Below the pieces are notes generated by a model. It worked only from the letters and a program-made list of their open reading frames with translations. It was not told where the DNA came from and made no database searches. The position numbers and the translations under genes were made by a program. Positions 47,816-61,071 of a stretch of 64,000 nt of DNA are shown one piece after another (position 1 is the stretch's first letter; each line of letters starts with the position of its first letter). Origin of the DNA: an uncultured Acidobacteriota bacterium (GTDB lineage: Bacteria > Acidobacteriota > Vicinamibacteria > Vicinamibacterales > CAVVIG01); NCBI GenBank assembly GCA_963748265.1, contig CAVVIG010000001.1, forward strand, positions 329,959-393,958. The letters are read 5' to 3'.

Positions 47816-48973
47816 TCACGACCGCAGCACGGCAGGCATCGGCTGGCGCGCGCCGACGCGCGCCAGCACGACACTCCTGTAGACATCCAGCGTCTCCGCT
47901 GCGGTGCGCTCCCACGAGAACTGCGCGGACCGTCGAAGGCCCAGCGCGGACATCTGGCGCCGCCGTTCCCTGTCGTGCGCCAGCGAGACCAGTGCCTCAC
48001 CCAGTGACTCGACGCTCAGCGGATCCACCCGGCAGACGGCATCGCCGCCGACCTCCGCCAGCGCCGCCGCGGCACCGACGATGACCGGCGTTCCGCAGGC
48101 CATCGCCTCCACGACCGGCAGGCCGAACCCCTCGTAAACGGATGGGAACACGAACATCTCGGCAAGGCTGTAGAGACACGGCAGATCCTCGAACGGCACA
48201 TACCCGGTGAACCGGACCGCATCGCGTACGCCGAGGCGATCGATCTGGTGATCGACGTCGCGCGACAGCCACCCGTACGGTCCGACGCAGACCAGCTGGT
48301 GCGGCAGGCCTGCCGCGCGCCGACGCCGCGCGAACGCTTCGAGCAGCAGCGGAAGGTTCTTGCGAGGCTCGATCGTCCCGACATAGAGCACGAAGCGATC
48401 GGCCAGCCCGTAACGGTCGCGCACGCGCTCGAGCGCCGCCGCGTCGCGCACGGGACGGAACGCCGGCGCCGCGGCCTCGTGGACCACGTGCACGCGACAC
48501 TCATCGATCCCAAAGAGGCGGACGATGTCACGCCGGGCTGCCTGGGAAACCGTGATGATGGCGTCGGCCCGCCGTGCCGCGACGTGGACGAACGGCCGGT
48601 TGAGCGCCACCCGGCGCGGCGGGTGGAACCGCGGGAACAGCGTCAGGCTCATGTCATGGATGGTGACGATGGTGGGTACCGGCAGTGCGAGCGGCACCAT
48701 CCCGTTGGTGAAGTGCACGACGTCGGCCCGCAGGCGGCGCAGCAGCCGTGGGGCATGCGCCTGCATCCAGACCAGGCGCGGCGCCCAGGCTGCGCAGACT
48801 TCGGTCTTCACCGACTCTGGCAATGGTGCCTCGGTGTCGATGGGACGATTCGAGATGACCGTAATCGCGTCCGCGTCTGCACGCGCGGCGAGGTGCCGCA
48901 GCAGGTGCTCGCTGTAGTAGCCGACCCCGGTGCGGCCCGGCCGGATCGTGGTCCCGTCAAAGGCGATGTGCAT
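47816..48973 (-). CDS. Glycosyltransferase family 4 (mannosyltransferase-like)
   Basis: TIHDMS, YVGTIEPRKNL, FPSVYEGFGLPVVEAMACG. Confidence 0.92.
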   Translation of the reverse strand: MHIAFDGTTIRPGRTGVGYYSEHLLRHLAARADADAITVISNRPIDTEAPLPESVKTEVCAAWAPRLVWMQAHAPRLLRRLRADVVHFTNGMVPLALPVPTIVTIHDMSLTLFPRFHPPRRVALNRPFVHVAARRADAIITVSQAARRDIVRLFGIDECRVHVVHEAAAPAFRPVRDAAALERVRDRYGLADRFVLYVGTIEPRKNLPLLLEAFARRRRAAGLPHQLVCVGPYGWLSRDVDHQIDRLGVRDAVRFTGYVPFEDLPCLYSLAEMFVFPSVYEGFGLPVVEAMACGTPVIVGAAAALAEVGGDAVCRVDPLSVESLGEALVSLAHDRERRRQMSALGLRRSAQFSWERTAAETLDVYRSVVLARVGARQPMPAVLRS

Positions 48974-50711
48974 GGTGTCCAGCGGCGGTCCCACTCGCTG
49001 CGGCAAGGCCGATCACGATGGCGATGAGGATGTAAGTGCCCGTGAAGGAGAGAAACGAGTCCAGCAGCCCGTGAGCCCCGATGGCCACACAGCCTGCGGC
49101 GATGCCGCATCCGAGCGCCGACGCCTGAAATGCGATCAGCGCATGACGCGACGTGCGCAGGACCAGCCACAACAGGGCCGCCGCGCCGAGAAGACCGGCG
49201 CCCGCGAGCACCTCGATGTACATGTTGTTGCTGTGAACGCGCGGGTCGGCCTCGCCCAGGCTCGCATATGGCCCGTAGCGCAGGCGGTAGTTGTCCGGGC
49301 CGACTCCGAGGAGCGGACGCTCCGCCGTCATCCGCAGCGCAGCCCCCCACAGGACTCCCCGCCCCGGCCGAACCGCGGCACGGGGTAGACGCTCGGGTCC
49401 TGAACGCCGGAGAGGCATCGCGCGTTCCGGCCCGGTCACCACGCCCTTCGTGAACCAGAGCACGGCGCCGGGTTCGGTCGAGAACCACAGTCGCTTCGGC
49501 TGCTCGATGTCCCACAGCAGTCGATACGTCCCGGGTTTCCCGGGCGCGCGGACGTCCGCCTCCAGCGTCGACCACGCCCCGCGCGGCATCCGGCTGCTGA
49601 AGGGGGTGCGATCGTTCTCCCAGGCCACCACGCGGTCCGAATCGGCGGCGATCCAGTGATACGAGAGCTGCACGGCGTCCGGCGACGCGGGGTCCCAGGT
49701 TGTCCGCCCGTCGTTGGTCACGCGCAGCTGCACGCGGCGGATTTGCCCGGTCTCGAAGGACAACGTGGGCGGCGCATCGATGCGGGCGCTGTACCAGTTG
49801 CTCTGCCCCTCCGTCGTGAACCGAAGACGGAGCGTCTCGAATGAGCGCGACGAGGCGATCAGCGCGATCACCACGAGCGCCACGACGCCAAGCGCGCGCG
49901 TCTCCCGCGACAGGCCATGCCGGCGCCATTGCCACACACCGGCGACCGCGAGACAGAGGGCCATCGTGATCAGACCGGCACGCGTGAACGTCAGGATGAT
50001 GGCCTGAGCGATCAGCACCAGGACGGCTCCGCGCCCCGTCAGCGCCCGCAGCGTCCCGCCGCGGGCGTCCAGCAGCAGCCCGAGACCGATCGCAAACGCC
50101 ACTTCCAAGTACATGGAGGTGATCGTGGGGTACTGAAACGGCCCGGACGCTCGCACCTGCGTTCCGACGACCGCCACACCTTCGCGAAACGGCGCGAACA
50201 GGCGTGCGGCCAGCACGGGTTGTGTGTAGTCGAGCACCACGAGACCCGCGACCAGTACGCCCGACGCGACAATGGCCACGGCAACCAGGCGCACGTGACG
50301 CTCGGAGGAGAGCCCCGCCACGCACATCGTCCAGATCGCTCCAGCCGCGATGATGCGTGCGGCCATGTGAAGCGCGTTGAGCTGATGGAGGGGCGCGGCG
50401 AGCGCCGCGATCACGCAGATACCTGCGAAGAGTGCCCAGGCTGCCGCGTCGCGCATGGGAAGGCGCGGCACCGTGCGGGTGCGCACCACGCTGAGCGCAA
50501 ACATGCCGAGCACCGTGGCCAGGACCACCTCCACCGAGGACAGGGCCTGGCCTGGCAGCGCGAGCACCGGCTGCAGCGTTTCGAACGGCGCCATCGCGAC
50601 GAGCGCAACGCATCCGACCGCCGCCACGCGGGCCGCTGCGGCGACAGACCCGTCGTGACGAATGAACGCGAGGCGCGCGTCCGAGCGCGTCCACGCACCG
50701 ACATCAGACAT
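48957..50711 (-). CDS. O-antigen ligase/Wzy-like membrane protein with inserted Ig-like periplasmic domain
   Basis: Many TM helices; RASGPFQYP, LTFTRAG, PLLGVGPDNY, HSNNMYIEVLAGAG; insert VTNDGRTTW...LSYHW...PGTYRLLWDI. Confidence 0.85.
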   Translation of the reverse strand: MSDVGAWTRSDARLAFIRHDGSVAAAARVAAVGCVALVAMAPFETLQPVLALPGQALSSVEVVLATVLGMFALSVVRTRTVPRLPMRDAAAWALFAGICVIAALAAPLHQLNALHMAARIIAAGAIWTMCVAGLSSERHVRLVAVAIVASGVLVAGLVVLDYTQPVLAARLFAPFREGVAVVGTQVRASGPFQYPTITSMYLEVAFAIGLGLLLDARGGTLRALTGRGAVLVLIAQAIILTFTRAGLITMALCLAVAGVWQWRRHGLSRETRALGVVALVVIALIASSRSFETLRLRFTTEGQSNWYSARIDAPPTLSFETGQIRRVQLRVTNDGRTTWDPASPDAVQLSYHWIAADSDRVVAWENDRTPFSSRMPRGAWSTLEADVRAPGKPGTYRLLWDIEQPKRLWFSTEPGAVLWFTKGVVTGPERAMPLRRSGPERLPRAAVRPGRGVLWGAALRMTAERPLLGVGPDNYRLRYGPYASLGEADPRVHSNNMYIEVLAGAGLLGAAALLWLVLRTSRHALIAFQASALGCGIAAGCVAIGAHGLLDSFLSFTGTYILIAIVIGLAAASGTAAGHHAHRL

Positions 50712-50932
50712 GAGCGTGGCTGCCGTCGGTCCAAGAACCTTGCCACGGCGCGCGACGAGCGCCGCGCGAGGGGCACGCGCGGTGCATACCGGCAAGGCCG
50801 CCGTCGCGCCGCGTTTTCTGCCGCATTTCGCCGTGCGTCGGGATCGCGCCGGCATTCGCGGCGGTTGTGCGCCGACGGCGTCGCCCAGGTATCCGACGCG
50901 ACGCCCGCAGGATGGTTACGACAACCGAAAAG

Positions 50933-52259
50933 ATGTTTCGCAAAGGGAAACCGGACGGACCGCGCGTGGTCGCTGACGCCGCCCTGCCCGCGCGCTCGCA
51001 GCGAGGACTCGTCCTCTATCGCGCTGTCTCCGATGTCGCCGCCAAGGGCGCCATGTTCCTCGTAACGGTTGCGGCAGCACGGCGCCTCGATGCGAACGCT
51101 TTTGGCCTCTTCGCACTCGCGACGACACTCGGATGGCTCGTCGCGGTCGGTTCCGACTTCGGGCTGCAGCTGCATACGGCACGTGCGGTCGCGCAGGCGC
51201 CGGCCGAGGCCTGGTCGCTGGTGCGCCAATGGCTCCGCGTGCGCATCCTCACGGGCATCGCAGCGCTCGCGATCGCGGTCGTCGCCCTGGGGATCGTGGA
51301 CATCGACCGCGCGACGCGCCCGATCGTCCTGGTGTTCGTCCTGGCGTACTCGGCCCAGGGGCTCACCGAGTTCTTCCATTACGTCTTCCGTGGGCTTGGC
51401 CGCAGCGACGTCGAGTCCACCCTCACGCTCGTGCAACGCGGCCTGATGCTGATGTGCTGCGCCGTCGTGCTCGTGTGGGCGCCCTCGGCAGCAGGGCTCG
51501 CCGCCGCGCTGCTCATCGCGTCAGCCGTGGCAGCAATGATGGGATGGGTCGTCACTCGACGCCTCGTCGCCGAAACCTCGTCGGAAGCCGACTCTCGCCC
51601 GCCGGACGGCAGCCAGACCCGCGAGTTCATGGCCCTGGTCGCGCCGATTGGCGCGGGCATCCTGCTGTCGGCGCTGTACCTTCCGGATCGATGTGTTCCT
51701 GCTCGATCGCTGGACTGGCGCCGCGGCCGTCGGCCTCTACGCGTCGGTGTTCCGCATCGTCGACGCGCTGCGGCTCTTCCCTGCGGCAGTACTGGCCGTG
51801 GCGTTGCCGGAGCTGTGCCGGACCACCATCCTGCAGCCGGTCACACGGCTCGCCCTCCGCCTTGGCGCGGCGGCCGCTGCGTTGAGCGCCGCGCTCTGGG
51901 TCGTCGCGCCGCGACTGGTTCCGGCGGTGTACGGTCCCACATTTGTCCCGGCGGTCGAGCCGTTTCGCGTGCTGCTGCTCGCCTTCCCGCTGATGGCGAT
52001 CAACTACGCGCTCACTCACCAGTTGATCGGCTGGCATGGGCAGAGGGCGTACGCCCTGCTCTGCGGCTCGGCGCTCGCGCTCAACGTCGGCGTCAATGCG
52101 CGATGGATCCCGCGGTACGGTGCGGCGGGCGCCGCGTGGTCCACGCTCGTCACCGAGCTGTTCGTGCTCGCGGGCTGCGCCGGCGCGCTCCTCTACGCGC
52201 GCCGGACGGCGACGGCGCGCGTCGACGCGATTCCCGAGCAGGTGCCGGTGGCCTCATGA
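50933..52259 (+). CDS. Wzx-type oligosaccharide flippase, frameshift near 51680 (start uncertain)
   Basis: ARRLDANAFGLFALA, SDFGL, FRIDVFLL...AAAVGLYASVFRI, IPRYGAAGAAWSTLVTE. Confidence 0.87.
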
Positions 52260-53185
52260 CGCCGCAGTCGCTCCCTTCTGTCGCGCAGCGGCTCGGCCTG
52301 AGCGCCAGCGAAGAGGCCATCGCGCGCAGCGTCCTGTACGCGTCGCTCTTCGACTACCCGCTCACCCTTTCCCAGTTGCGGCAGACGCTGATCGAATCGG
52401 CACAGACGCCTACGCAGATCCTCGCGACGTTCGAGCGGAGCGCTCCGCTGCGAGAGCTCGTCGAACATCGCAACGGCTTCTTCTACCCGGCCGGCCGCCA
52501 GGAGCTCGTGGCCGAACGGCGAAGGCGCGAGGGGCGCAGCCGTGCCTTCCTCAAGGCGCACCGGCGGCTGCTGCGGCTGATCGGGGGACTCCCATACGTG
52601 CGGCTCGTCGCCCTCTCGGGCAGCATTGCGCACCTGAATCTCGAGAAAGGCGGCGATCTCGACCTCTTCATCGTCACACGGGGGGCACACGTCTGGAGCA
52701 CGGCGGTCGCCGTGGTGCTCCTGGCGAAGGGTATGCGCCGCCGCCGGACGCTCTGCGCGAACTTCGTCGTGGCAGACACGGCGCTCGCCTTCGCGCAGCA
52801 GGACCTGTTCACCGCAAGCCAGATCGTCGGCCTGAAGCCGCTGGCCGGCGCCGCGACATTCCAGCAGCTCCTCGATGCGAATCCCTTCGTGCGGCGCTTC
52901 TTTCCGAACTTCCACGCGCCGGCGTGCGGTGCGCTGCCCGCGCTCCAGCCGGCCTCGCCTCCACGACGGAAGCGGGCGGCGGAGTGGCTGCTGATGGTCC
53001 CTGCCTGGGGCGTGGAATGGGTGTGCCGGCACGCCTACGGCAGGTACCTCCGCAGGCGCGCGGGCGGATGGGAATCGCCGGATCAGGTGCGGCTCGAACC
53101 GGGCTGTCTGAAGCTGCACACACGCAGCCACCGCAGCACCGTCCTCAACCGGTTCGACGACCTGGTGCGAGCGGCGCTGAAGTAG
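52256..53185 (+). CDS. Uncharacterised protein with Pol-beta-type nucleotidyltransferase motif
   Basis: YASLFDYPLT N-terminus; VALSGSIAHLNLEKGGDLDLFIV (hGS-x10-DhDh); ATGA overlap with flippase. Confidence 0.75.
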   Translation: MTPQSLPSVAQRLGLSASEEAIARSVLYASLFDYPLTLSQLRQTLIESAQTPTQILATFERSAPLRELVEHRNGFFYPAGRQELVAERRRREGRSRAFLKAHRRLLRLIGGLPYVRLVALSGSIAHLNLEKGGDLDLFIVTRGAHVWSTAVAVVLLAKGMRRRRTLCANFVVADTALAFAQQDLFTASQIVGLKPLAGAATFQQLLDANPFVRRFFPNFHAPACGALPALQPASPPRRKRAAEWLLMVPAWGVEWVCRHAYGRYLRRRAGGWESPDQVRLEPGCLKLHTRSHRSTVLNRFDDLVRAALK

Positions 53186-53207
53186 ACACCGCCCGCTGGC
53201 TCGCGCG

Positions 53208-54512
53208 TCAGGACAGGAGCGCTTCGAGCTCGCGGCGCATCACGTCGATCGCCTCATCCTCGGTCGCCGCCGCCCGGGCCAGCCGCGCGAGGCGCTCCGC
53301 CGCGCCCTCACGGCGCCTCAACGTCGCGGCGCCCTCCGGCAGGATCTCGGCGACCATGCCGGCCGCCGCCGTGAAGTTAGTGGCGGGGTCGATCAGGATG
53401 AAGCTGCCGGTTCCGCGGTTCTCGACGTACGGGTCCAGCATCACCGGACGCGCCGTGGAAATGTTTACCGAACCAATCTGATTGAGCGTCAGCGGACGGT
53501 CCACTTCCGCGGTGACCGACCGCGTCGAGTGCTTGAGCAGGTAGATCCGCGACGGATCGAGCGGCCGCTCGTCCATCCAGACGATGTCGGCGCGGAAACG
53601 CTGGGCGACTGCCACCTCACCGATCGTGATCATGTCGCCGCGGCTGATGTCGATCTCGTCGTCGAGCGTCAGCGTGATCGCCTGGCCGGCGTGAGCGGCG
53701 TCGATCTCGCCGTCGTAGGTGACGATCTGCTTCACGCGCGACGACCGGCCGCTCGGCCAGATGTTGACCGTGTCGCCCCGGTGCACGGACCCCGACAGCA
53801 CCTGTCCGGCATACCCGCGGAACTCGTGCGTGGGCCGAAGCACGAGCTGCACCGGGAACCGGAACGGGCGGTCGATCGCGTCGCGCTGCACTTCTACGGT
53901 CTCGAGGAACTCGAGCAAAGACATCCCCTCGAACCAGGGGGTCCGCTCGCTGCGGCCGATGACGTTGTCGCCGTGCAGCGCGCTGATCGGAATCGGGTGC
54001 AGCTGTGCGCCGGCGAGGATCTGCTCGAAGTCGTCGACGATCGTCTCGAACACCGAGCGATCGAAGTCGACGAGATCCATCTTGTTCACCGCCAGGACGT
54101 AGTGGCGGATGCCGAGCAGTTGTGCGATCTGCGCGTGGCGGCGCGACTGCGGGCGGACGCCGTGCCGGGCGTCCACGAGCAGGATGGCGAGGTCGGCCGT
54201 CGACGCCCCGGTGGCCATGTTGCGCGTGTACTGCTCGTGGCCGGGCGTGTCGGCCAGGATGAACTTGCGGCGCGCCGTCGCGAAGTACCGGTACGCCACG
54301 TCGATCGTGATCCCCTGCTCACGCTCCGCCCGCAGGCCGTCGGTGAACAGCGAGAAGTCGATGGCGCCGGCCGAGCGGTTCTTCGAGGCGCGCTGGATCG
54401 AGTGCAGCTGGTCCTCGTACACGGAGCGCGAGTCGTACAGCAGGCGCCCGATCAGCGTGCTCTTCCCATCGTCCACGCTGCCTGCGGTGCAGATGCGGAG
54501 CAGACCCGACAT
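53208..54512 (-). CDS. cysN: Sulfate adenylyltransferase subunit 1 (GTPase), no fused APS kinase
   Basis: TAGSVDDGKSTLIGRLL, AEREQGITIDVAYRYF, DTPGHEQYTRNMATGAS, NKMD. Confidence 0.96.
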   Translation of the reverse strand: MSGLLRICTAGSVDDGKSTLIGRLLYDSRSVYEDQLHSIQRASKNRSAGAIDFSLFTDGLRAEREQGITIDVAYRYFATARRKFILADTPGHEQYTRNMATGASTADLAILLVDARHGVRPQSRRHAQIAQLLGIRHYVLAVNKMDLVDFDRSVFETIVDDFEQILAGAQLHPIPISALHGDNVIGRSERTPWFEGMSLLEFLETVEVQRDAIDRPFRFPVQLVLRPTHEFRGYAGQVLSGSVHRGDTVNIWPSGRSSRVKQIVTYDGEIDAAHAGQAITLTLDDEIDISRGDMITIGEVAVAQRFRADIVWMDERPLDPSRIYLLKHSTRSVTAEVDRPLTLNQIGSVNISTARPVMLDPYVENRGTGSFILIDPATNFTAAAGMVAEILPEGAATLRRREGAAERLARLARAAATEDEAIDVMRRELEALLS

Positions 54513-55468
54513 CAGAAGTAGCCCTCGCGCTTGCGGTCTTCCATGGCGGCTTCAGACGCTCGGTCGTCGGCCCGGGTCGCGCCGCGCTCGGTGATGCGGC
54601 TCGTCGCAACCTCCTCGACGATCTTCTCCACGGTGTCGGCGTCGGACTGCACGGCCGCGGTGCAGGTCATGTCGCCGACCGTGCGGTAACGCACCACCAT
54701 GCGGAGGGTCTTCTCGTCGGCCTGCGGCGGCGTCACCGGCGTGACGGCCATCAGCATGCCGTCCCTCCGGAACACGTCGCGCTCGTGTGCGTAGTAGATG
54801 GACGGCAGTTCCAGACCTTCGCGCGCGATGTACTGCCAGATGTCCACTTCCGTCCAGTTCGAGAGCGGGAACACCCGGATGTGCTCCCCCTTCCGGTGAC
54901 GGGCGTTGTAGAGCGACCAGAGCTCGGGGCGCTGGTTCTTGGGATCCCACTGGCCGAACTCGTCGCGGAACGAGAACACGCGCTCCTTGGCGCGGGCCTT
55001 TTCCTCATCCCGCCGCGCGCCGCCGAACACCGCGTCGAAGCGATGCTCGCGGATGGCGTGCAGCAGCGGCACCGTCTGAATCTGGTTGCGCGAGGCGCGC
55101 GGACCGGTCGGGTCGACGACGAGCCCCTGCGCGATCGCCTCCTCGACGGAGGCCACGACGAGCCTGGCGCCGAGCTCCGCGACGCGGCGGTCGCGATAGT
55201 CCATCACCTCGGGAAAGTTGTGTCCCGTGTCGACGTGCATCAGGGGGAACGGGATGCGCGACGGGAAGAAAGCCTTCTCCGCGGCACGCAGCATCACGAT
55301 CGAGTCCTTGCCGCCCGAGAACAGCAGCACGGGCCGCTCAAACTCGGCGACCACCTCCCGCATGATGTGGATGCTTTCCGCCTCGAGCGCGGCCAGGTGG
55401 TCGTAGCTCGGGGCCACCTCGGAGTGGCCGGTGCGGGTCAGCGGCGATCGGTTGAGGGCTGCAGCCAT
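54512..55468 (-). CDS. cysD: Sulfate adenylyltransferase subunit 2
   Basis: LEAESIHIMREV, LFSGGKDS, HVDTGHNF, GGARRDEEKARAKER, WDPKNQRPELW, MEDRKREGYF. Confidence 0.96.
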   Translation of the reverse strand: MAAALNRSPLTRTGHSEVAPSYDHLAALEAESIHIMREVVAEFERPVLLFSGGKDSIVMLRAAEKAFFPSRIPFPLMHVDTGHNFPEVMDYRDRRVAELGARLVVASVEEAIAQGLVVDPTGPRASRNQIQTVPLLHAIREHRFDAVFGGARRDEEKARAKERVFSFRDEFGQWDPKNQRPELWSLYNARHRKGEHIRVFPLSNWTEVDIWQYIAREGLELPSIYYAHERDVFRRDGMLMAVTPVTPPQADEKTLRMVVRYRTVGDMTCTAAVQSDADTVEKIVEEVATSRITERGATRADDRASEAAMEDRKREGYF

Positions 55469-55483
55469 GGGCATGTCGGCACC

Positions 55484-55518
55484 AAAAACAAAAGCCCGGG
55501 GTGGGTCCCCGGGCTTTT
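55484..55518 (-). terminator. Intrinsic terminator in the cysD leader (attenuator)
   Basis: Minus strand AAAAGCCCGGGG-accca-CCCCGGGCTTTT-GTTTTT: perfect 12-bp stem plus U tract, about 15 nt upstream of the cysD start. Confidence 0.9.
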
Positions 55519-55544
55519 CGGTCTGTGGCTTCTGAAGCTCGTGT

Positions 55545-55646
55545 TCAGCAGATGTCTCGAAGCATGGCCAGACGACCGTTCGGCGCGGGACCCTGACGGC
55601 CCGTACAACAACACGCGCAGCAACAGACGGCGGCCTTCTGTGACAT
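55545..55646 (-). CDS. Cys-rich leader peptide of cysDN, 33 aa: MSQKAAVCCCACCCTGRQGPAPNGRLAMLRDIC
   Basis: ATG 55646, TGT TGC TGC GCG TGT TGT TGT at 55625-55605, TGA 55547-55545; lies between promoter and terminator. Confidence 0.85.
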   Translation of the reverse strand: MSQKAAVCCCACCCTGRQGPAPNGRLAMLRDIC

Positions 55647-55657
55647 CAACGTATAGA

Positions 55658-55687
55658 TATGTATCAACTTACGGGCGTCGAAGTCAA
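55658..55687 (-). promoter_or_regulatory. Putative sigma70 promoter of the cysDN leader
   Basis: TTGACT (55687-55682), 18 nt, TGn-TACATA (55663-55658) in a locally AT-rich patch; -10 imperfect. Confidence 0.55.
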
Positions 55688-55698
55688 CTGGAGCCGTG

Positions 55699-56689
55699 TC
55701 AGTCGGGCTGGGTGGCCCTCATGCCGACGTACCGGTGGGCCACCTGCTCGTCCGCGTCGATGACGGCAAAGAAGCGATACAGCAGCCAGGCGTCCAGCAC
55801 AATCACCCCCGCCAGCACGAGGTAAGCCTCGTTTCCGGGCACGATGTGCAGGTCGCGCAGCAGCTTGGAGAGGCCGAAGGCGACGACCCAGGCGTCGAAA
55901 CTCATGCAGATACGCCGGAACGTCTCGGGCCGCATCCGCTGGATGATCATGGCGCCAATCGGCACACCAACCGCCACGCTGGGGACGATCCAGGGCACCA
56001 GCGCGAAGCTGGGCGCCGCAAACAGGCCGACATACCAGTAGGCGACCGCCGTCATCGACGACTCCGCCAGCCGCACGACGCCGAGCGCCGCGCGGAACTC
56101 GCGCTTCTCCAGCCCCTGGTTGTTGAGCGCGATCGCCAGCGGCGGACCTGAAATGGTCGTCACCGAGGTACAGGACCCCGACGCCTGCGCCGAACACGAG
56201 GCCGGCGCTCCGCTCGGCCTGGATCGGGCGCCGGAACCCGGCCGCCTGCAGCAGAATCAACGGGAGCAGCACGAGGAACGTGTCGAGCTTCAACCAGTCC
56301 GGGCTCACCCTCGACACCAGCGTCGTCCCCACGAGGACGCCCGGGATCAGCCCGATGATAATCGGAAGGACGCGGCGCCAGACGGAGGGAAGGCTGGCGC
56401 GGTTCACCCAGAGGACGTAGGCGTTCAGCGGCACCTCGATCAGGATGAGCGCCGGGTTGAGCACGCGGTTCGACAGGAACAGCAGTGCGAGCGGCACCGT
56501 GATCGAGGAGAACCCGTAGCCGAGGGCGCCGTTCACCGTCGCGGCGAGCAGCGTGATGCCGCTCAGCCACATCATCTCTGGCGTCACGACCGAGACCTCT
56601 TCGCGTCGCCGGGCAGACGGCCGGGTGCCGTGCCGCCTTCGCCGGGACGCGGCCTGTACGCTGTCAGATTGGGTGCTTTCGGGAATCAT
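55699..56689 (-). CDS. Sulfite exporter TauE/SafE family permease, frameshift near 56165 (alternative start GTG 56587)
   Basis: LLAATVNGALGYGFSSITVP, GVGVLY...TTISGPPLAI, multiple TM helices; SD GGAG 7 nt before ATG 56689. Confidence 0.87.
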
Positions 56690-56691
56690 CA

Positions 56692-56785
56692 CGCTTCTCC
56701 GTCACGGGTGAACGTCGACCAGCCGACTGACTGGCCTGGAGAAGCGGAGCAACCTGGGGGTTGGAACTATCTGAGGGTGCTTCTC
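56692..56785 (-). promoter_or_regulatory. SD-sequestering switch in the tauE leader
   Basis: Anti-SD CGCTTCTCC (56746-56738) is the perfect complement of SD GGAGAAGCG (56700-56692); competing GAGAAGC (56785-56779) overlaps the leader stop codon. Confidence 0.7.
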
Positions 56786-56879
56786 ACCAGCCGATCGTCG
56801 GCCCGATACACGCGCAGCGACACGCCAGCGCGCAACAGGGACAACAACAGCTCAGGTTCGAAGCGATCACTTCCGGCAT
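56784..56879 (-). CDS. Cys-rich leader peptide of tauE, 31 aa: MPEVIASNLSCCCPCCALACRCACIGPTIGW (possibly leaderless from GTG 56870)
   Basis: ATG 56879 or GTG 56870; TGT TGT TGT CCC TGT TGC ... TGT CGC TGC GCG TGT (8 Cys); TGA 56786-56784. Confidence 0.82.
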   Translation of the reverse strand: MPEVIASNLSCCCPCCALACRCACIGPTIGW

Positions 56880-56907
56880 TGTTGGCTAGGACGCGCTGGC
56901 AAGTCAA
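56878..56907 (-). promoter_or_regulatory. Putative sigma70 promoter of the tauE leader
   Basis: TTGACT (56907-56902), 18 nt, AACAAT (56883-56878), 7 nt, GTG; same TTGACTT -35 as the cysD leader promoter. Confidence 0.55.
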
Positions 56908-56909
56908 GC

Positions 56910-56924
56910 TGGCACCCCGCTTGC
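56910..56924 (+). promoter_or_regulatory. Sigma54 (-24/-12) promoter upstream of wzm-wzt
   Basis: TGGCAC-CCCGC-TTGC matches the consensus TGGCAC-N5-TTGC. Confidence 0.6.
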
Positions 56925-56953
56925 GAACTGAGCTTCACGCCAGCGAGGGTGTC

Positions 56954-57811
56954 CTGATTCCAGTCAGCAACCGGCCCGTCACGCGCTTCCAACCCGCGTC
57001 CGCGGGGGCGATCCGCCCGCTGGCGGCGCTCGCCCGCCTCGCCCGGTTCCAGGATCTGCTGCTGACGCTCAGCCTGCATCGCATCAGGGTCCGGTACAAG
57101 CAGTCGCGCCTGGGCATCGCATGGGCGGTGCTGCAACCGCTGGCCATCATGCTCGCTTTTTCACTCGTCTTCGCGCTGCTCGGCGGCGCGCCGAGCAACG
57201 GCGTCCCCTACGCGCTGTTTGCCTACGCGGGGCTGGTGCCGTGGACCGCGTTCGCCTCCGGCCTTTCGAGCGCCACGACGTCGCTCACCGGCCACGCGGC
57301 GCTGCTCACCAAGGTCTCGTTCCCGCGCGAGATTCTGCCGATCACCTACGTGATTGCCGCGATGGTGGACGCCGCCATTGCCTGCCTCCCGCTCGGTCTC
57401 CTGATGGCGTGGTACGGCGTTGACGTCACGCCGATGCTGGGATGGGCGGTCGTCGCGCTGCTGCTCCTCGCCGTCTGGCTCCTCGGCACGGGGCTGCTCC
57501 TGGCCGCCCTGCAGGTGCGCCATCGTGACATCGGTCTCGCGATCCCCGTCGTCCTGCAGGTGTGGATGTTCGCCACGCCGATCGTGTACCCGCTGTCGCT
57601 GGCCCAGGCGCGGTTGTCGGGGCCGCTGTTCTGGCTGTATGTCGCGAACCCGATGGCAGGCGTCGCCGACACGTTCCGGCGCGCGACGGTGCTCGGACAG
57701 TCGCCCGACATCCCGACGCTCCTCGCCGGTGCGGTAACCGCCCTCGCGCTCGTTCCCCTGGCCTACGTCTACTTCAAGTACGCCGAGTTCACCATGGCGG
57801 ACGTGGTATGA
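56954..57811 (+). CDS. wzm: ABC-2 polysaccharide exporter permease (start uncertain)
   Basis: [51 protein letters not shown]. Confidence 0.92.
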
Positions 57812-58995
57812 GCGGGGTCATCGATGTCCGCATCGATCACGTCTGGAAGCAGTACCGGCTCGGCACGCGGCGGAACGCACCGACGTTCTGGGCGCTGAAG
57901 GATCTCGACTTCGCTGTCGCGCGCGGAGAGTCGGTTGGCGTCATCGGGCCGAATGGGGCCGGCAAGAGCACGCTGCTCAAGCTGCTCGCCGGCATCACCA
58001 CGCCGACGCAGGGCGAGATCACGATTGACGGGTCGCTGTCGGCACTGATCGAGGTCGGATCCGGGTTCCATCCGGAGCTCACGGGACGGGAGAACGTCTT
58101 CCTGAGCGGCGCCATCCTCGGCATGCGGCGCCGCGACATCGCGAGCCGGCTCGATGCCATCGTGTCGTTCGCCGGCGTCGAACGCTTCGTCGATACGCCG
58201 GTGAAGTGGTACTCGTCAGGCATGTACGTCCGACTCGGCTTCGCCATCGCCGCACATCTCCAGCCGGACATCCTGCTCGTCGACGAGGTCCTCGCGGTCG
58301 GCGACGCCGAATTCCAGGCGCGGTGCCTCCAGCGCATCGACGATTTGAAGCGCCAGGGCGTGACCACGCTGCTGATCTCGCACGACCTCACCGCGGTCGA
58401 ACAGCTCTGCGACCGGGTCGTGCTCCTGGATCGCGGCGAAGCGATCGCAAACGGGGCGCCAGGCGACGTCGTCGCCCTCTACCATCGCCGCGTCATCGCG
58501 GCGCAGAAACACGAAGCGCCCCCGACCGACCCGGCATCGCTTCACAACCTGCTCAAGCTCACGAACCTCACCTTCCACGCGACGTCCAGCGGGGGAAACG
58601 CACGCTTCACGACCGGCGAGCCGCTCGTCGTCCGCCTGCGCTTCTCAGCGTCCGCTGCGCTTCCGGGCGTGCGTTTCGAGGTCGCGTTCCACTCCCCGGA
58701 CGGGCGGACGCTTCACGCGACGATTGCGACCGAGGCCGCGCCGGTGCGCAGCCCCGGTGGCGTGGCGGAGTTCACGGTGCCCGTTCTGCCGCTCCAGTCG
58801 GGTGCGTACCACGTGGGCGCTGTCGCGCGCGACGGCCGGACCGGTCATGCCATCGACTGGTGGGACGGTGGGAGCACGCTGTACGTCGAACGCGGCTCGG
58901 CAACGGCGCCGGGGCTCGTCTTCGTGCCGCACACGTCTCGAGTCATCGAGGGCGTTCCGGACCGCGATCCGGTGTCAGCGTCGCGAGACCGCTGA
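57808..58995 (+). CDS. wzt: ABC polysaccharide exporter ATPase with C-terminal carbohydrate-binding domain
   Basis: [48 protein letters not shown]; Wzt_C-like tail. Confidence 0.93.
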
Positions 58996-61071
58996 CGCGC
59001 CATCAGCGGCGCGGGGACCGTCGACGCGGAACACCGTCATGCGCTGGTCCTCGTACAGCTCCGCCAGACAGCAGGTGCGCATCCGATCGCTGACGATCGC
59101 CTGGTGGCGCAGCCTCGGCTCTTCGAGACGGCGCCGATCCAGCAGCACATGCGTCACGCCGAGCCGCCGCAGTTCGCGGAGCGCAGCGTCCTCCTGCCCT
59201 GCGGGCGCGTTCCAGATCGCGGCGTACGACGGCGCCGCGTCGCTCCACAGCCTCGCGCGGTGACTGTACAAGTGGTCGCCGCCTGCGAACGTCAGCACGA
59301 GCGCGTCCGGCGGCGTGTGTGCGTCGATGAACTGCCACGCGCGATAGGCCGGCACCGTCCGCGCGAGGTACGACTCCTCCGCCTCGCCACCGGCGACGAC
59401 GGCTGCGGGAAGCGCACGGAGGACGTGGGTGACCCAACCGTCCCACCCGCGGCGGTCGCGTTCCTGCCACTCCGTGAGCGGCGGAAGCATCATCACCATC
59501 AGAATCGCGATCGCAGCTGCGGGAATCCGCGAGACGCCGGCTCGCAGACGGTCCGCGTGATACGCCAGCACGCCGAAGCCGGCGGCCGCGAGCACCGCAA
59601 GCGCCGGCACGAGCGGAATGAGAAAGCGCAGCTGCAGGCTGCCGAGCGGCGACGCCCACACGCCGACGTACATCGCGCACCCGGCGGCAAGCGCCGCGAG
59701 CGTCCGGCGGCGGCGGGCGAAGACGGCGAACGGCGCCAGCATGAGGAACGATGGCCCGAGCGCTCCCCCGAACGCCGCGCCGTGCGTGGTGATATCCCAC
59801 GGCAGCCGCAGCATCGGCCCGACTCCGCGACCCGCGCCGAAGTGCGCCTTGAATCGTGCGAGATCCCGATCGGTCTCGGCCGACCATCGTTCCGGCGGCA
59901 CCGCGCCGAAAATGCCGACCATCTCGGGAAAGAACGGGTTGCGAGCCCCCGACCAGGCGCGCGCGTACCACGGCGAGGCCAGGGCGAGCGCGATTGCCGT
60001 CATCAGGACACCGGCCCGCAGACCGTGGAGCCGGCCGCGCCCGGCCTGTGCCGGGAACGCCAGGAGCACGAGCGCCGCAAGCCCCAGCACAATCAGCCCG
60101 AGATGCTTCACCGATAGCGCCGCGCCGAAGATGACGCCGGCCACGAGGAGCCACCTGCGATCGCCCTCCGTCCGATAACGCAGGACACAAACGATTGCCA
60201 CGGTCACAAGCCAGGTGAGCGCCAGATCGACGTACGCCGTGGACGCCTCCCACATCATCGTCGGCGCGGTCACGGCGAGGGCGAACACCAGGTGGCCTGA
60301 GACGCCCGGCGCGGCGTGACGCGCGAGCGCCACCGCAGCGCTCGCCGTGAGCGGCAGGCAGACGAAGTGCAGCAGCTTGGCGCCCCCGGGTCCGCCAAGC
60401 ACCAATGCCGGCCCGTTCAGCACTTCCCATCCGAGCGGATAGAGCGAGATGAACTCGTTGACAAAATCGACCGGCCGCCCGGCCGCGAGCCACTGCGCAG
60501 GCAGCCACAGGTGGTACCAGACCGCGTCGTACTCGATCTCCGGCGCGAGCGCGGCGACCAGTGCGCATCCGAGTGCCAGCACGGCGCAGGCGGCGTAGAG
60601 GGCATCGCTCCCCGTCACACGCGGCCGGCCAGTGCGGACCATCGCCATCGCGGACGACAGGATCGAACGAACCTCAGACGGCCTCGACGCAGCCGCGGCC
60701 ACGATGACAATCGCGACGACGACCGGCCGATACAAGCCGATGGCGGCGAAGGCGAACATGAGCGCGCTCACCGCGGCCACGCCGACCGCGAGGGTCACGT
60801 GCACCCGCTCGGTGGGGCTCGGAAAGAGGTCCGTCGCGCGTGCGAGCACTGCGCGGCCGGCCTGCCAGGCCGCGAGATACACCAGCGCACATGCGCCCAG
60901 TGCCCGTCCCGCGCGCCGCATCGCCTCGAACGCGAACGGCAACTGGTTGAAGTTCCGGTCGATCAGGTCGAGCGTATCAGTGGGAAACCTGAACGAGTGT
61001 GAGGCGACTATCGCCACCCACGCGCCGGCCGCCGCAACGATCGCGAGCGAGCGGGCGCGTTGTGCCGTCAT
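58975..61071 (-). CDS. GT-C fold integral membrane glycosyltransferase (ArnT/GT39-like)
   Basis: [33 protein letters not shown]...NPFFP, LRFLIP; many TM helices. Confidence 0.8.

Follow-up and report, generated by a model that had tools for sequence, protein, structure and literature searches.

Classical transcription attenuators, such as those of trp, his, leu, thr, ilv and pheA in Proteobacteria and of trp and ilvB in Actinobacteria, consist of a short open reading frame (ORF) carrying cognate codons and three mutually exclusive helices. To our knowledge, cysteine (Cys) is the one amino acid without an established classical, terminator-based leader-peptide attenuator of its biosynthetic pathway. 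Control of cysDN, cysK and sulfate transport is known from S-box (S-adenosylmethionine, SAM) riboswitches, Cys T-boxes and the regulators CysB and CymR. Here, we describe the leader of cysDN, the genes for the two subunits of a sulfate adenylyltransferase, on the minus strand of a 64,000-nucleotide (nt) stretch of DNA from an uncultured Acidobacteriota bacterium of the order Vicinamibacterales (contig CAVVIG010000001.1, positions 329,959 to 393,958; the whole stretch is called the window). This leader is very probably a ribosome-mediated transcription attenuator of the trp/his type, which reads the supply of charged tRNA-Cys.

Like the classical attenuators, the cysDN leader combines a short ORF of cognate codons with exclusive helices between regions 1:2, 2:3 and 3:4, directly upstream of a biosynthetic operon. 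It differs from them in its amino acid, cysteine, and in its targets, the sulfate-assimilation genes. Moreover, its mRNA is probably leaderless or nearly so, its stop codon is located in the apical loop of the antiterminator and not on region 2, and its many paralogous copies form a regulon. It has no sequence relation to the leader families of Rfam. In a 2-kb scan with Rfam 15, no match reached its gathering threshold, the best scores over the leader being 19.6 bits (gathering 55), 17.0 (gathering 40) and 16.9 (gathering 49.5), and eight related or analogous loci gave no match. S-box, T-box and CysB/CymR systems sense SAM, uncharged tRNA and N-/O-acetylserine by means of an aptamer or a protein, and no such RNA family matches here.

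Leaderless poly-Cys ORFs have been described in mycobacteria as cysteine-responsive attenuators, of which the tested case sequesters the ribosome-binding site (Canestrari et al., Mol Microbiol 2020, 10.1101/834739); the accessible text of that paper contrasts them with terminator-based attenuators. As far as this text describes them, they resemble the leaders found here in being poly-Cys ORFs 5' of cysteine and sulfur operons, in occurring in several copies (a 'ribulon') and in being missed by annotation pipelines. Unlike in mycobacteria, the conserved output here is an intrinsic terminator with a U tract, and the phylum is another one; the mycobacterial design is resembled by a second leader of the window, in front of a TauE/SafE gene. 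Cys-rich leader peptides without terminators were predicted for Actinobacteria in 2005 (Seliverstov et al. 2005, PMC1262725, accessible text), and a 2026 paper (PMC13236596), in its accessible part, refers to the Cys leaders of mycobacteria as translational.

A U tract is also found in uORFC-8-2, an upstream ORF of cysS in Rhodobacterales, which the accessible text of Brewer et al. (2021, PMC8632094) presents as a predicted attenuator with conserved Cys codons and two stems. Both systems thus share Cys codons in an upstream ORF and a U tract compatible with intrinsic termination. As described there, however, the Cys codons of uORFC-8-2 are two in tandem, at positions 14-15; the leaders found here have six or more, and the run of the cysDN leader occupies codons 8-14. 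It controls a tRNA synthetase gene (cysS) in Alphaproteobacteria and not assimilation genes, and UGC dominates in it, whereas UGU is enriched in the cysDN-type leaders. The Rfam scan of the cysDN leader region did not find uORFC-8-2.

The literature search, with subscription journals and supplements outside its view, found neither such an element for Acidobacteria nor a cysDN attenuator combining poly-Cys codons with a terminator; related motifs might be present in the supplementary tables of Brewer 2021 and Canestrari 2020. In their accessible parts, PMC8079986 and PMC11109978 contained nothing relevant. The original prediction, made from the DNA sequence of the window, had regarded an intrinsic-terminator Cys attenuator on cysDN in an Acidobacteria-like genome as undescribed. 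This still applies to the cysDN case, for which no description was found, but a Cys-codon leader with a terminator had already been predicted for Rhodobacterales cysS (PMC8632094, accessible text), the only terminator-type prediction that the search brought up. The cysDN leader is very probably a terminator-type Cys attenuator of the assimilation pathway, unrelated in sequence to the known ones and multiplied into a regulon.

Organization of the cysDN leader

All leader elements lie within a 224-nt gap on the minus strand, between the stop codon of a TauE/SafE-type gene (55701-55699) and cysD. Direct reading gives a -35 box TTGACT (55687-55682), of which TTGAC is invariant in alignment A1 of 17 leaders. 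A likely extended -10 element, TG-N-TACATA (55666-55658), follows 15 nt past the -35 box; it is conserved in A1 and belongs to an A+T-rich block, GTAAGTTGATACATATCTATAC, conserved in the alignment of relatives. This promoter is absent from the output of a promoter consensus scan, as its -10 element (TACATA after a TG) falls short of the rule used there. The leader ORF, with 33 codons and a stop (55646-55545), runs from the ATG at 55646 to the TGA at 55547-55545, and no Shine-Dalgarno sequence precedes this ATG. The same frame is given in the ORF listing from an upstream TTG (55545..55667). Seven Cys codons are present (four TGT and three TGC). Six of them, in codons 8-14, constitute the regulatory Cys run TGT TGC TGC GCG TGT TGT TGT (55625-55605), with TGT TGC TGC at 55625-55617, then GCG, then TGT TGT TGT at 55613-55605.

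The intrinsic terminator (55518-55484; regions 3:4), identified by a consensus terminator scan and by folding, pairs 55518-55507 with 55501-55490 in 12 base pairs (eight G-C), closed by a 5-nt loop and followed by GUUUUU ending at 55484. The scan gave three terminator-like sites in 2.5 kb, this hairpin among them, against 1.1 expected. The ATG of cysD is located 10 nt past the U tract and has no Shine-Dalgarno sequence. The gene itself (55474-54512), a single copy in the source genome, encodes the small subunit of the sulfate adenylyltransferase (NCBIfam NF003587, 475 bits; TIGR02039, 453 bits). Its stop codon is overlapped by cysN (54512-53208; TIGR02034, 560 bits), encoding the GTPase subunit, which is devoid of an adenylylsulfate (APS) kinase domain. 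The original prediction had already placed the TTGACT box, the 33-residue ORF with its peptide, the Cys run, the 12-base-pair hairpin and cysD on the sequence, with every coordinate right.

The minimum free energy (MFE) fold of the full leader consists of a 5' domain, a P1/P0 hairpin and the terminator. The P1/P0 hairpin (55618-55583) is the putative anti-antiterminator, joining regions 1 and 2. P0 pairs GCGCG (55618-55614) with CGCGC (55587-55583) and takes in the TGC GCG codons of the Cys run; P1, stacked on it, pairs GGGCC (55602-55598) with GGUCC (55592-55588), its 5' end being 3 nt past the last Cys codon. When the transcript is ended at 55502, before the 3' arm of the terminator, the MFE structure becomes the antiterminator (55593-55503), with or without a ribosome mask. 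Its outer helix (regions 2:3) joins 55593-55583 to 55514-55503 in seven pairs, a bulged G and three more pairs. Two inner helices pair CGGUC (55578-55574) with GACCG (55523-55519) and UGGC (55570-55567) with GCCA (55529-55526). The leader stop codon occupies the apical part, between the GGUC and GACC strands. Region 2 thereby has two partners, region 1 behind the Cys codons and region 3, which is the 5' arm of the terminator plus its loop. This structure matches, base for base, the nested alternative helix that had been proposed earlier. Terminator and antiterminator of that proposal both stand; the covarying anti-antiterminator P1, on the GCGCG/CGCGC helix, had been missed. To judge by sequence and comparison, the ORF, its codon run and the three alternative helices are genuine parts of the leader, and they are conserved as described below.

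Conservation of the leader and a sulfur regulon

The cysD loci were fetched from 40 relatives, and 29 of the 41 genomes, the source genome included, were matched. An in-frame poly-Cys short ORF is present in 17 of the 29 cysD loci with upstream sequence, and a GCCCGGG...CCCGGGCUUUU terminator at 19 cysD loci. The terminator-carrying loci include genera whose CysD is only ~53% identical to that of the window. The comparison of cysD upstream regions, which had been suggested with the original prediction, thus found both the poly-Cys ORF and the terminator conserved. Some loci deviate from this pattern. One (L030, genome G011) has kept the promoter block and the terminator and has lost the Cys ORF together with the central part of the leader. 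In L007, L012 and L020, TauE abuts cysD and there is no leader; cysDN may there be under the control of the TauE leader. At L025/L042, in a 74% complete genome (G010), the ATG and the Cys run are in different frames and the match to cysD is broken into three pieces, which looks like assembly indel errors or a decaying locus.

For a search of the whole family, a covariance model of the leader (R1) was built with the automatic RNAalifold structure on a MAFFT alignment. In this alignment the hairpin columns are shifted between groups; the structure of R1 is poor, and the model served for searching only. R1 matches 102 of the 118 family genomes, which represent 40 of the 43 genera, and finds 1-5 copies in each; among the genomes of at least 90% completeness, it matches 50 of 56. 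An in-frame short ORF with at least three Cys in eight residues occurs in 109 of the 113 collected copies, the medians of these 109 leader ORFs being six Cys and 34 codons. Three weak matches without a Cys ORF (L111, L124 and L137) are probably false; they are followed by genes for a peroxiredoxin, a homoserine dehydrogenase and a sigma-70 region-4 fragment. Simpler searches were rejected: out-of-frame CTG repeats and Cys/Arg-rich shadow frames dominated the output of naive scans for TGY runs or Cys-dense windows (904 windows). Promoter-filtered scans found three of the four source-genome leaders along with several doubtful ones, and covariance models were relied on instead.

The spacing of the elements is also well conserved. 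In 100 of 102 leaders, the terminator lies 81-106 nt past the Cys run. The stop codon follows the Cys run at a median distance of 54 nt (10th-90th percentile 42-63) and precedes the terminator core by a median of 32 nt (28-43). The stop codon is located upstream of the terminator in all 101 leaders and inside it in none. Across 88 leaders, the spacing between the -35 box and the start codon is almost always 36-44 nt, which fits a 5' leader of 0-6 nt. Cysteine accounts for only 0.84% of the codons in 1011 long proxy ORFs of the source genome. Within the Cys codons, the TGT share is 53.7% (354/659) in the 109 leaders versus 17.3% in the source-genome proxy genes. This rare UGU could tune stalling through wobble decoding, or keep the Cys run unstructured. 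The core of the run, TGCGCGTGTTGTTGT, is conserved at the nucleotide level in the alignments of leaders. The core UGUUGUUGU is nearly invariant in the 109 leader ORFs (loci L031-L145).

Judged by motif, the first downstream ORF of the 113 copies is cysD in 46, a siroheme-synthase-like gene in 35 and another gene in 31, with none in one case. Family searches covered 17 genes, drawn from these other genes and from the downstream genes of the source genome. They identified YeiH-family proteins (PF03601) in five cases and Porin_O_P in two; TauE, an outer-membrane barrel with a carboxypeptidase-regulatory domain, a CysM/K-like PALP enzyme, a redoxin and a siroheme synthase were found once each. Among the remaining five, three are unrelated (matches without a Cys ORF) and two have no family. 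A regulon of sulfur genes is likewise apparent from the comparison, and the source genome alone holds at least four poly-Cys leaders, before cysDN, a siroheme synthase gene, a YeiH-family gene and TauE. The siroheme-class leader of this genome (L035; G000:C1:202302-202485, minus strand) encodes a peptide MNCVCGCCCCADQGP..., and its terminator ends right at the ATG of a siroheme synthase gene (NAD_binding_7 and Sirohm_synth_M domains); the gene after it was judged by eye to be uroporphyrinogen methyltransferase-like. The YeiH-class leader (L032; G000:C4:131502-131672, minus strand) encodes VFAVLTRACCCSG... and has a terminator in front of a gene for a PF03601 membrane protein. Four further family members carry leaders before PF03601 genes, suggesting that these YeiH-family transporters serve sulfur uptake rather than export.

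The paralogous classes have only the Cys run, the helices and the terminator in common, and their peptides differ otherwise (..CACCCTRT..VPAP in the cysD class, MIGQSTCMCSCCCCCGL.. in the siroheme class). Within the siroheme class, comprising 35 members, both peptide and RNA are strongly conserved. In many copies, the start codon of the first structural gene lies 0-15 nt past the U tract, without a Shine-Dalgarno sequence, as in the siroheme-class junction ...CUUUUUGUUUUUAUG; translation on read-through RNA must therefore begin beside the terminator hairpin.

The second poly-Cys leader of the window, located before the TauE/SafE gene (56907-56689, minus strand), was recognized by sequence and comparison. 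Its promoter-like TTGACT-18-AACAAT (56907-56878) is followed by an ORF encoding ..SCCCPCCALACRCAC.., which starts at ATG 56879, or at GTG 56870, in which case it would be leaderless, and ends at TGA 56786-56784. This leader has no U-tract terminator. A predicted sequester/anti-sequester triad is formed by GAGAAGC, which overlaps the stop codon, by GCUUCUCC and by the Shine-Dalgarno sequence GGAGAAGC; it is kept, with matching changes, in five relatives from three genera (L005, L008, L012, L024 and L030). In appearance, the TauE leader is a Cys attenuator that acts on translation, as in mycobacteria, and it is placed in tandem with the transcriptional one. The TauE gene itself (56692-55699, minus strand) is split over two frames near 56172. 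With the intact TauE of a relative as a tblastn query, residues 8-144 match in one frame and 141-297 in another, the split being either a real frameshift or an assembly indel.

The helices of the terminated state are supported by covariation. RNAalifold applied to 17 leaders returned only P1 and the terminator, with compensatory changes in P1; in alignment A3, P1 is 97.3% paired and three of its five pairs change on both sides. The terminated state was then written out as P1, the GGUC/GACC helix and the terminator, and counted on two alignments. In the 37 cysD-class leaders, 95.3% of the cells are paired and 8 of 21 pairs have changed on both sides. The structure scores 0.212 for covariation; shuffled alignments give 0.142, with none of 500 attaining the observed value, and slid partners give at most 0.123. 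The siroheme class (35 leaders) has the same design with an additional small hairpin holding the stop codon (88.5% paired, 10 of 28 pairs changed). Terminator pairing in relatives amounts to 98.5% and 98.6% of the cells in the two alignments, and the GGUC/GACC helix shows GC, GU and AU variants.

For the antiterminator, complementarity is the conserved property. Regions 1 and 3 are alike and class-specific, namely GGACC/GGGAC(C) in the cysD class and GGGCUC/GGCUC in the siroheme class. In the latter, the 2:3 helix comprises 12 pairs over the whole 5' arm of the terminator, with 94.5% of the cells paired versus at most 50% for slid partners. A ribosome-sized mask on the Cys run leads 91 of 102 leaders to form 2:3, counted when at least five of the seven core bases of the terminator 5' arm pair with the segment just 3' of the Cys run; this agrees with the claim that the alternative helix would disrupt the arm. 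The attenuator geometry itself, likewise part of the original prediction, recurs in relatives, with a poly-Cys ORF in 109 of 113 copies, a conserved terminator and a complementary antiterminator.

Proposed mechanism and alternative explanations

The leader shows the features by which an attenuator is recognized: clustered cognate codons, a terminator before the first gene, an antiterminator sharing an arm with it, a 1:2 helix whose 5' strand lies within the predicted footprint of a stalled ribosome, and downstream genes that make the sensed amino acid. From this organization, we infer ribosome stalling, its timing, the start of transcription and the response to cysteine as follows. Transcription would start a few bases before the ATG, leaving a 5' leader that is short or absent; the 36-44-nt spacing from the -35 box to the start codon and the absence of a Shine-Dalgarno sequence make leaderless or near-leaderless translation probable. 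The ribosome would translate the 33-codon ORF while RNA polymerase advances. When cysteine is plentiful, it would clear the Cys run, allowing P0/P1 (1:2) to re-form behind it and to hold region 2. At the stop codon, it would sit inside the loop closed by GGUC/GACC, where the long-range helix could not close. The 3:4 helix would then form, and transcription would end at ~55484, 10 nt before cysD. In the original prediction, a ribosome reaching the stop codon was to mask the antiterminator; the blocking of the long-range helix agrees with this, but its 5' strand would not be masked, the stop codon not being on region 2.

When Cys-tRNA is scarce, the ribosome would stall on codons 8-14, its footprint covering P0 and the 5' arm of P1 (region 1). 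Base pairing of region 2 (GGGUCCCGCGC) with the terminator would then involve its 5' arm and its loop, and the GGUC/GACC and UGGC/GCCA inner helices would help to join regions 2 and 3. The terminator could not nucleate, and RNA polymerase would read into cysDN. In the absence of translation, 1:2 would form and transcription would terminate. As in the textbook attenuators, the switch would be a kinetic one, in which 1:2 forms first and has to be held open by the stalled ribosome.

Several results weigh against this mechanism. In the covariation test put forward with the original prediction, the 2:3 helix covaries weakly, in contrast to the terminated-state helices. In the cysD class, 73.6% of the 2:3 cells are paired and one pair of nine has changed on both sides, a weakness owed in part to the existence of two pairing registers; the siroheme class shows two-sided changes in 2 of 12 pairs. 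The bases of this helix are mostly invariant G and C, and what speaks for the antiterminator at the sequence level is conserved complementarity, not compensatory change. G+C-rich sequence pairs readily, and in the cysD class a shuffled region 2 still reaches -13.8 kcal/mol, compared to -16.2 for the true partner. The cross-class swap ran contrary to expectation in one direction, the cysD region 2 with the siroheme region 3 giving -17.2 kcal/mol versus -15.9 within its own class; the swap is ambiguous because the siroheme terminator arm is longer and more G-rich. Folding with and without a ribosome mask, also suggested at the outset, gave a divided answer. The mask favors 2:3, the sequestration of the terminator arm amounting to -13.6 kcal/mol in masked and -7.4 in unmasked leaders, with -7.8 for 31 ordinary terminators of the source genome; the Mann-Whitney p of this comparison overstates the support, because the leaders are kin. 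In the full-length RNA, however, the 12-base-pair terminator wins at equilibrium under every ribosome mask, and the transcript ending at 55502 prefers the antiterminator even without a ribosome. Termination in the presence of plentiful cysteine would accordingly depend on 1:2 forming first, and the model needs kinetic, co-transcriptional control.

Sequences from RNA libraries were also compared with the leader. Six runs are on record as RNA, each containing under a fifth of the sampled words. The data are contigs, which cannot show starts, ends, strand or level and may derive from DNA. Four of the six runs were compared with the window; one identical contig (55400-55609) spans the terminator into cysD and another (55554-55735) joins the end of TauE to the start of the leader; both were taken neither for nor against termination.

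The Cys ORF might sense by stalling and yet act on cysD translation, mRNA decay or Rho access, the hairpin being mainly the terminator of TauE. Such an output is known from the tested mycobacterial leader, which sequesters the ribosome-binding site (10.1101/834739, accessible text), and the TauE leader of the window has a Shine-Dalgarno sequester/anti-sequester triad and no terminator. The hairpin is, moreover, directly downstream of TauE, and one RNA-library contig joins the 3' end of TauE to the leader. However, leader and terminator also occur where no TauE is located upstream, and before siroheme synthase and other genes. With its ATG 10 nt past the U tract, cysD has no Shine-Dalgarno sequence that could be sequestered, and the alternative helix overlaps the terminator 5' arm in 91 of 102 leaders; we consider this explanation improbable. 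A riboswitch-like or protein-bound RNA sensing a sulfur metabolite, with an incidental or secondary short ORF, would be in agreement with the high nucleotide conservation, which includes synonymous positions of the Cys codons, with blocks such as ACAUCCGCUGA that are conserved even where the stop codon moves, and with the compact, multi-helix fold of the leader. It is nevertheless very improbable, given that the Cys run is in frame with a start codon in 109 of 113 copies and, besides the terminator, is the only element common with the unrelated-looking leaders of other lineages. In addition, no Rfam family matches, and the 1:2 / 2:3 / 3:4 switch fully explains the helices.

The conservation of the peptide within a class extends beyond the Cys run (..TRT..VPAP in the cysD class, GL..SPCANGL in the siroheme class), as would be expected of a functional Cys-rich micropeptide, for instance a metal- or redox-binding one, that is co-expressed with sulfur genes next to an ordinary partial terminator. 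These class-conserved residues are, however, encoded by helix arms, such as ACC AGG ACC and G GUC CCC GCG CC, and constraints on the RNA therefore explain the peptide conservation. Between classes, only the Cys run is in common, and the position of the stop codon shifts within the genus of the source genome with unchanged nucleotides, which makes a micropeptide extremely improbable. A chance ORF in a G+C-rich intergenic region beside an ordinary terminator was also considered, as high-GC genomes give many spurious Cys/Arg-rich frames, with 904 Cys-dense windows in the naive scan. The conservation of frame, position and context, seen in 40 of the 43 genera and again in the paralogs upstream of sulfur genes, leaves practically no room for it, and it is rejected by the comparative data.

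Distribution beyond the family and genomic context

The occurrence of poly-Cys attenuator leaders outside the family was surveyed in two ways. In an even sample of the phylum, searched with a model R2, matches at E <= 0.001 were found in 38 of 151 genomes, which is not to be read as 38 leaders; one of them, the unpublished genome G156, matched with 26.9 bits, and none of the conclusions draws on it. An alignment from R2 (A4) contained terminator matches on the reverse strand and, filtered to 96 rows, contributed no counts. Matches of at least 45 bits occurred in six genomes only, all of the Vicinamibacterales order. Outside the order, four of the five loci inspected were bare terminators and were rejected as leaders. 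The exception, from another Acidobacteriota family, has a 7-Cys leader, with a terminator, upstream of a cysM-like gene. Other families of the order carry poly-Cys leaders before siroheme synthase, and also before TauE-like and CysH-like genes (judged by eye, unconfirmed by family search).

A gapped pattern scan over one genome per species, using a pattern built to find this design, gave at least 118 stretches, of which 80 were listed. The titles of 53 among the 80 matches listed name Acidobacteria/Acidobacteriota or Vicinamibacter-type taxa. The 27 listed stretches with other taxon labels were processed by a script, and their results are leads and not a census. Five sulfur genes with a Cys-run ORF and a terminator were found among them: genes for sulfate-binding proteins in metagenome-assembled genomes (MAGs) labelled Binatia and delta proteobacterium, CysT in a Deltaproteobacteria MAG, cysK in an Anaerovoracaceae MAG and a cystathionine lyase/synthase gene in a Clostridiales MAG. 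The other-lineage and other-family loci (L162, L176, L149, L187, L189 and L275) have no Rfam match. The remaining 22 listed stretches are mostly chance-like, a few carrying a Cys-run ORF before a gene without family placement.

[quoted passage not shown] If true, poly-Cys leaders would control anion porins of the outer membrane, YeiH and TauE transporters, CysDN, CysH, siroheme synthesis and cysteine synthase. Two leader designs would be in use, sometimes in tandem, one based on a terminator before cysDN and the other on sequestration of the Shine-Dalgarno sequence before TauE. Cys leaders would then constitute a widespread, largely undescribed class of repeated origin. Next to nothing is known about gene regulation in this soil phylum, whose members resist cultivation, and the cysDN leader offers a clear case there that can be tested. 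This regulatory element occurs in most genomes of the family and escapes both annotation pipelines and Rfam; the regulon can be read from sequence alone and aids the annotation of YeiH-family, TauE and Porin_O_P genes in sulfur uptake. The leader could also serve as a compact cysteine-responsive switch.

In the window, cysDN and TauE are located amid polysaccharide genes (48957-61071). These neighbors encode a Wzy_C O-antigen ligase-like protein, a Polysacc_synt flippase-like protein, whose gene is convergent with cysN, an ABC-2 permease, a Wzt-type ATPase and a PMT_2 glycosyltransferase.

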